From Octopus vulgaris (taxonomy: Eukaryota): 64,000 nt of DNA. Each line of letters opens with the position of its first letter. Position 1 is the stretch's first letter. The stretch covers positions 105,524,001-105,588,000 of the forward strand of contig OX597816.1 in the NCBI GenBank assembly GCA_951406725.2. The letters run 5' to 3'. Of this stretch, positions 476 to 855 are shown one piece after another. Under the pieces are notes generated by a model. The model did not search any database, was not told the origin of the DNA, and worked only from the letters and a program-made list of their open reading frames with translations. Both the position numbers and the translations under genes were made by a program.

Positions 476-855
476 CTAGAAATATTTTTAATTTTGAAAC
501 CCAGCGGATGTATTCCACTGAATTTAGATAAATAATCCTTCAAACAGATGGTCAGTAGCGACTCCTGCTGGGTTCGGCTACTCTGCATTGATAAAGGGCA
601 AATACCCTGAAACATGTCTGCAGATGCCTGACCAGCAAGGGGAAGCGGCTGACCTTCCCTGTTCGAAGGTTATAATGGACACAGGTTTGTGTGTCATATA
701 GCTAGCTAGAGGTGATGGCCTCTTGGAGCTAATCAACGGCAGCTTTCATCCTATATTTATGGACTGCCATATTAGCTTGGCGATAACTATTAATATCCAG
801 TATCGCTGCCGTAGTCTCCTTTAGAGAGACTTAGAAATAATAATATTTCTAATAT
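476..855 (+). mobile_element. Hammerhead-bearing structured non-coding element, copy 1 (retrozyme-like or Penelope-associated)
   Basis: GC-richer island made almost entirely of hairpins, homologous to 36502-36802(-) and 31691-31782(-), flanked by a 39-bp direct repeat (437-475/856-894). Confidence 0.7.
582..624 (+). ncRNA. Type I hammerhead ribozyme (U3-A8 core variant), predicted cleavage after GUC at 618
   Basis: TCTGCA-TTGATAA-AGGG(caaata)CCCT-GAAAC-AT-GTC-TGCAGA: 6-bp stem I, 4-bp stem II, palindromic minimal stem III ACATGT. Confidence 0.75.

Follow-up and report, generated by a model that had tools for sequence, protein, structure and literature searches.

The hammerhead ribozyme that tips a long RNA rod in this Octopus vulgaris DNA very probably belongs, as one domain, to a non-coding unit of 361 nt, which is likely a non-LTR retrozyme borrowing a Penelope-type reverse transcriptase (RT)/endonuclease. 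The stretch analyzed, referred to as the window, spans 64,000 nucleotides (assembly GCA_951406725.2, contig OX597816.1, positions 105,524,001 to 105,588,000 of the forward strand) and is AT-rich (about 34% GC). It carries a unit of family A (copy 1), an insertion of family B (copy 2), and a truncated copy of family C, with the following features:

437..475, plus strand: left copy of a 39-nt direct repeat, likely target-site duplication, 95% identical to 856-894
492..851, plus strand: family A retrozyme unit (copy 1), one 361-nt period with one hammerhead, 94% identical over its full length to another natural copy
502..520, plus strand: hairpin H1, upstream of the rod, predicted in 6/6 families
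532..587, plus strand: rod 5' arm, ending with the 3-nt side of a 3x1 internal loop (579-581) and stem I (582-587)
588..618, plus strand: type I hammerhead core, U3-A8 variant, with UUGAUAA (588-594), stem II with a CAAAUA loop (595-608), GAAA (609-612), and the palindromic helix III ACAUGU; predicted cut after 618
619..673, plus strand: rod 3' arm, containing a conserved purine-rich/pyrimidine-rich motif able to self-fold
678..695, plus strand: hairpin H2 (GACAC/GUGUC), common to six families
699..731, plus strand: hairpin H3 with an internal loop, covarying between families
736..812, plus strand: predicted four-way junction domain, with the inner preferred 3' insertion end at 796
797..851, plus strand: "tail" separating the two preferred 3' ends and carrying two terminal hairpins; 3'-end clusters at unit positions 307 and ~361
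856..894, plus strand: right-hand counterpart of the 39-nt direct repeat that brackets copy 1
31623..31776, minus strand: family C, 5'-truncated copy, 3' domain only, without hammerhead
36438..36447, no strand assigned: 10-nt direct repeat, likely target-site duplication of copy 2, pairing with 36853-36862
36447..36854, minus strand: family B retrozyme insertion (copy 2), one 353-nt period plus a 58-nt terminal redundancy
36617..36745, minus strand: family B hammerhead rod (copy 2), with the core CUGAUGA starting at 36699 and helix III ACUGCAGU; cleavage predicted between 36667 and 36666

The rod is one domain of a larger unit

Both rods described by a first-pass annotation of this DNA are real. 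The rod of copy 1 (532-673, plus strand) folds at -62.3 kcal/mol (z -5.38, 0/200 shuffles as good), and the arm pairs that had been listed for it are all found in the sequence and nearly all in the MFE fold. The rod of copy 2, made of other arms and located on the minus strand, folds at -47.3 kcal/mol (z -4.33, 0/200 shuffles), and the shuffle control that the annotation had proposed thus came out in favor of both. The hammerhead was also correctly placed at the rod tip, as a relaxed scan of the 64 kb returned 2 motifs, one per rod. Because the reverse strand of copy 1 folds as well (z -6.01), the strand is not set by the z-score alone; it is set by the hammerhead. The extent of the structure needed correction: the rod is a single domain in the order H1, rod, H2, H3, junction, and terminal hairpin, and hence represents only ~40% of a 353-361-nt unit. 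Calling it a viroid-like rod is apt as a resemblance but not as a classification, since this is a genomic retrozyme with branched structure over more than half of its unit.

The 39-nt repeat that flanks copy 1 is absent from other copies of the family, which makes it a likely target-site duplication. The 58-nt repeat around copy 2 was considered as a target duplication and rejected because it is element sequence. Stem I of copy 2 contains a mismatch (window position 36665) that the family majority lacks. Copies 1 and 2 bear a single hammerhead each and are therefore likely dead-end offspring, selection having acted on source arrays.

Six families of units in the octopus genome

Related sequences fall into six families (A, B, B2, C, D, and E), with 507-4340 first-look candidates per family in the 2.8-Gb assembly. 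Genome searches with A and B returned dispersed full-length copies that are 91-95% identical (40 scored of 3150 and of 4340 candidates). Family C was found via the third window fragment (31623-31776), B2 came from a flank, and D and E from a sample of sixty 10-kb stretches (8 beside the window and 52 at round coordinates), 6 of which held related sequence, a density of about one locus per 100 kb. Repeat junctions give unit lengths of 361 nt for A and 353 nt for B; the range of 352-361 nt was measured for A, B, B2, and D, and C and E are of about the same length. The units contain no ORF. Most sampled copies consist of 1-1.5 units, and two same-strand units are present at each of the family A loci L010 and L025. 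Tandem arrays with at least 2 hammerheads occur in D and in B2, which has an array of about nine units. Family D is young (copies 98-99% identical on different chromosomes) and its arrays of several units have intact hammerheads, and family E is old (87% identical to its own majority).

A tRNA-derived SINE was rejected as the identity of these repeats (0 tRNA genes in 6 loci and no tRNA family in the Rfam scan), and a reading based on polymerase III A/B boxes was dropped because no box is conserved across families (judged by eye against the consensus). Elsewhere in the assembly, a 50-nt minisatellite (contig C23:42842945-42843741) is built from family B positions 80-128, the portion that contains the hammerhead, and loci L106 and L107 (contigs C31 and C10) are identical where compared, possibly a segmental duplication or an assembly duplicate.

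The RNA fold is retained across families

Whole-unit folds of the family majorities have z-scores of -4.0 to -8.6 (six families, 40 shuffles each). The same domain order (H1, hammerhead rod, H2, H3, four-way junction, and terminal hairpin) is predicted in all six, the MFE folds of D and E differing locally, and the rod is predicted to be a stem I extended to 37-48 bp. Positions can be counted outward from the core independently of any alignment, through the 6-bp stem I, the 3x1 internal loop, and 6 more positions. In these 12 positions, 71 of the 72 cells pair in the six families, with base pairs that differ between them, and the single nucleotide of the 3x1 loop is U in every family. Duplexes formed by a family's own arms reach -44.9 to -63.0 kcal/mol, against a mean of -27.0 for the 30 swapped pairs and -22.3 for shuffled arms; the best swapped-arm duplex (-44.3 kcal/mol) is formed between the sister families B and B2. 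The sense duplex is stabler than the antisense duplex in 6/6 families and has more G-U pairs in 5/6. Selection on the RNA fold, which the first-pass annotation had read from the retained pairing, is thus supported by the pairs kept next to the core and by the preference of each arm for its own partner.

The covariation in a family alignment that it had asked for was found, and within the rod it reached the inner part only. In a sequence-only MAFFT alignment of 21 natural copies from the six families (six lineages only, with relatedness not modelled), 22 of the 44 named pairs are changed on both sides, a value as high in 0/500 shuffles and compared with 5-12 in slid controls. RNAalifold predicted 31 pairs, 19 of them with double changes, and within the rod recovered the inner 10 bp and nothing further outward, where column-wise covariation is lacking. 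In stem I, the MAFFT alignment sets family A two columns out of register, which is why family A is counted as broken there. The A versus B rod alone showed no excess of double changes (1 observed, 3.0 expected), and in pairwise rod-arm alignments, where the D and E folds are partly alternative MFE folds, an excess was found in a minority of the 30 ordered family pairs, A versus B not being among them. The 3' hairpins covary between A and B (8 double changes, 1.3 expected, p=0.0005). Support for the outer rod comes from the swapped-arm test and not from column covariation.

The proposal that structure but not sequence is conserved was right about the common fold and overstated about the sequence, as the arms retain residual homology. 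Between A and B, the 3' arms are 59% identical (p=0.01) and the 5' arms 50% (p=0.75), and homology at p<0.05 was found in 11/15 family pairs for the 3' arm and in 7/15 for the 5' arm. Judged by this likeness, the rod arms of A and B are diverged homologues, and the outer rod appears to have been kept by register shifts together with substitutions. Private changes hit rod pairs and unpaired sites alike (GC p=0.49, AT p=0.23), which indicates that genomic copies decay and that selection acted on the source elements, in line with the earlier attribution of selection to source lineages.

Of the two rod arms, the 3' arm is the more conserved. It contains a conserved GGGRAG...YUCCC motif (window 640-665, plus strand, with equivalents in the six families), the self-fold of which is preferred by RNAalifold and would compete with the rod; as a hairpin (z -0.4 to -2.5), it beats its shuffles in E only.

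A type I hammerhead with a palindromic helix III

The units present the elements of a type I core, namely C3-A9, G12-A14, A15.1-U16.1, H17, and three helices with helix I open. Their geometry (6-bp helix I with an internal loop, 4-bp helix II, and short palindromic helix III) is the canonical form described for metazoan type I hammerheads, with a 6-bp helix I, a 4-bp helix II, and a short palindromic helix III (PMC4209133). In B, B2, C, and E, helix II is closed by a mismatch. Loop II of the octopus hammerhead is presumably similar in sequence to that of Sm-alpha. The hammerhead is called from its core nucleotides and helix geometry because Rfam gave no match on these units: the scan of the window had 0 matches at gathering score, 6 representative loci had no hammerhead family at E<=10, and a genome search with RF00163 gave 6 matches among 73 scored candidates, none directly on these units. 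Rfam miRNA matches were set aside as microsatellite-driven. Isolated RF00163 matches at L061:1506 (minus strand) and L064 (45.5 and 34.8 bits) are unrelated to families A-E, and a 557-nt tandem repeat that adjoins an A copy (L004:424 and 981) has a hammerhead-like core and a palindrome.

The hammerhead occurs in only one polarity per unit, and its core is intact in 34/35 family A copies. In this family, the core has 1/319 private changes compared with 2.7% elsewhere (p=0.001); the depletion is borderline in B and B2 (p=0.05 and 0.06) and absent in C, D, and E, and is a lead rather than proof because the copies are best hits. The U3-A8 variant of family A is the covariation reported in Schistosoma elements (PMC4209133). 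B2 (seen in 27 copies) and E carry the U4C core variant (CCGAUGA), for which lower activity has been reported, yet which is viable in a viroid (PMC3088659); both are high-copy families. Helix III is palindromic, with differing sequences, in 31/35 copies of A (two versions), 55/58 of B and B2 together, 29/29 of D, 9/15 of C, and 8/17 of E (overlapping D loci may be counted more than once), which implies cleavage as dimers (PMC6765202).

The insertion footprint resembles that of Penelope elements

Copies contain tandem pieces truncated at the 5' side as well as inverted arms; their flanks are AT-rich and (TA)n, and the target duplications range from short to long. In A, B, B2, and D, the 3' ends fall into two clusters, separated by 43-55 nt. 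At 36 of 52 two-armed loci there is one outer end per site; both ends lie at the outer site at 1 locus, and 15 loci have an end at some other position. By family, one end per site was found at 6/8 loci for A, 5/8 for B, 5/11 for B2, 5/5 for D, and 15/20 for C, the sites of C having been set post hoc and 3 loci that run off the extracted sequence having been left out. Penelope elements possess a tail and two reverse-transcription start sites (PMC8557442, PMC11167929). The two-ended footprint matches this arrangement, and the families probably spread by means of Penelope-type enzymes.

Many intact 781-aa ORFs with RT and GIY-YIG domains are present in the genome. The window has no such ORF between repeats, and ORF pieces lie within 1.5 kb of 3/145 unit loci in a search with three related proteins as probes, by which other clades could be missed. 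Comparison of the unit with the ends of Penelope-like elements in 36 loci, a partial sample, gave no match beyond apparently separate insertions. A young two-ORF Penelope-like element (479 + 781 aa, RT, GIY-YIG) was observed at L087:1-385 and 4788-5172, L091, and L101; its terminal repeat has a U3-A8 core and the ACAUGU palindrome of family A, without a clear helix I. Distinct short repeats, whose minimal hammerheads have a 4-bp helix I, a long helix II, and a palindromic helix III, occur at L156, L172, L105, L102, L002:211, and L019. They end in a common AT-rich tail before (TA)n and are likely Penelope terminal repeats.

Propagation of the units and alternative explanations

In the mechanism that we propose, a tandem array would be transcribed and adjacent hammerheads would cut as dimers through their palindromic helix III, giving unit-length RNA. 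The cut monomer would carry rod arms at both ends, and the rod would hold its 5'-OH and cyclic-phosphate ends for ligation and would also keep the ribozyme folded after cutting. An RtcB-type ligation of the monomer would produce probable circles, as extrapolated from known families, and a Penelope-type enzyme would copy the unit RNA into the two sides of a break, starting at two internal sites. Cut monomers of A, B, and D retain the rod in silico, and since the rod arms sit at the monomer ends, they are predicted to clamp these ends for ligation. D units differ less within a locus than between loci (0.013 versus 0.032 differences per site), and this sharing of variants suggests that both arms come from one source. 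Private variants recur at a period of 2-3 units in 2 of the 9 D loci examined (two units in L153 and three in L249), suggesting multimeric templates or later unequal crossing-over; simple copying around a single monomer circle would not be expected to give this pattern. In 4 probable-RNA runs, contigs, which cannot give levels, cover the 3' half of the B unit at least 20-fold above the hammerhead half, as would read-through 5'-truncated copies and not an abundant circle. With these two observations, the circle step becomes the weakest link.

We tentatively read the ~350-nt unit as a conserved, functional RNA architecture in which a ligation-clamping rod is combined with a Penelope-recruiting hairpin hub that sets two starts, and for which an active ribozyme and circles are needed; we give this full reading somewhat less than an even chance. 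The need of an active ribozyme for spread is suggested by the clean catalytic cores among decaying copies. In vitro, cleavage by the hammerhead is dispensable for insertion of an anole Penelope element (PMC11167929), and 8/9 frog retrozyme dimers showed no cleavage (10.64898/2026.07.22.740005). A doubtful though not negligible alternative is that mobility proceeds through linear multimeric transcripts only, with the rod serving folding, stability, or enzyme recruitment and no circle being formed. The period-2/3 patterns in two D arrays and the 3'-biased contig depth in the B unit speak for it, as does the anole element, which starts internally at two sites without a circle (PMC11167929). It is countered by the circles that retrozymes of equal size form in mussel, coral, and axolotl, by the joining of the cut ends by the rod in silico, and by the greater sharing of variants among D units of one locus than among those of different loci.

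The units are unlikely to be solo pseudo-LTRs (pLTRs) shed by autonomous Penelope-like elements rather than self-propagating RNAs. They share their insertion architecture with Penelope-like elements (PMC8557442), the active element found here combines a U3-A8 core with ACAUGU in its terminal repeat, and frog retrozymes resemble pLTRs (10.64898/2026.07.22.740005); yet Penelope-like ORF pieces are near only the 3/145 loci mentioned above, two of these being split from the unit by a microsatellite or other sequence, successive units are joined head to tail without an intervening ORF, and no end-to-end likeness to the sampled pLTRs was found. We consider it very unlikely that the rod arose as a by-product of mutation, with template switching creating an inverted repeat that hairpin-templated repair then maintained without selection on RNA. 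Inverted copies are frequent in these elements, the reverse strand is nearly as well folded, and the outer rod register differs between families, all of which such an origin would share; it fits poorly with the greater stability and more numerous G-U pairs of the sense strand, with a 3x1 loop, bulges, and core that are retained and not perfected, and with separate hairpins that covary as well. Hammerhead viroids of the Avsunviroidae have the size, self-pairing, and hammerhead of the octopus unit, and with the hammerhead at the rod tip these traits evoke an integrated viroid-like replicon (a retroviroid) with RNA-to-RNA replication. Such an origin is highly improbable, because the ribozyme is found in a single polarity, thousands of genomic copies bear retrotransposition signatures, and over half of the unit is branched. 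Unlike the Avsunviroidae, the octopus element is single-polarity, genomic, and retrotransposed, and it belongs with the animal non-LTR retrozymes, not with viroids.

Relation to known retrozymes and implications

Animal non-LTR retrozymes are non-coding 150-450-nt repeats with a type I hammerhead, the mussel units being 350-390 nt long; they have long target duplications, Penelope-like helpers have been proposed for them, and ligation by RtcB was shown for those of mussel and axolotl (Cervera and de la Pena 2020; PMC7229834). The octopus units share their size (352-361 nt), hammerhead, and predicted self-pairing (z -4.0 to -8.6), and differ in being mostly 1-1.5 units long and in the multi-family fold and Penelope tail, which are absent from the available text of PMC7229834. 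Vertebrate non-LTR retrozymes have been described as Penelope derivatives (Li, Clavereau, and Pollet 2026; 10.64898/2026.07.22.740005). Monomers, dimers, multimers, and co-occurring Penelope-like elements are common to both systems; the frog units are tied to pLTRs by homology, whereas the octopus units, with no homologue found among the sampled pLTRs, are linked by their insertion footprint instead, and the vertebrate sample, as described in the available text, includes no mollusc (10.64898/2026.07.22.740005). With Penelope pLTRs, the octopus units have in common partial tandems, an inverted 5'-truncated copy, AT-rich targets, an optional tail between start sites, palindromic helix III, and U3-A8 (PMC8557442, PMC11167929, PMC4209133). 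They differ from these pLTRs in lacking an ORF, in having a canonical hammerhead and not the minimal pLTR form, and in a tail of 43-55 nt compared with 30-40 nt in Penelope. Schistosoma Sm-alpha and newt satellite 2 share the type I fold, a looped helix I extension, and a weak helix III (PMC6155905), from which the octopus helix I differs by its extension to 37-48 bp.

No prior description of cephalopod retrozymes was found in the literature (Repbase/Dfam or the supplement of PMC7229834 could contain these families), nor of a retrozyme fold conserved across families, and the terms hammerhead, ribozyme, and retrozyme occur 0 times in the main text of an octopus repeat paper. Published work has already predicted that RNAs of this type are self-paired and leave the hammerhead free (PMC7229834), and a rod is expected for the class. 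These families bear on two questions, namely what the helper recognizes in the RNA and whether spread requires the hammerhead. Because six diverged families coexist in one genome, they form a natural structure-probing set for selected helices, and their comparison points to the 3' hairpin hub and the two start sites as the likely enzyme-binding region. With a young array-forming family and intact Penelope-like ORFs in the same genome, this putative partnership becomes testable in vitro.
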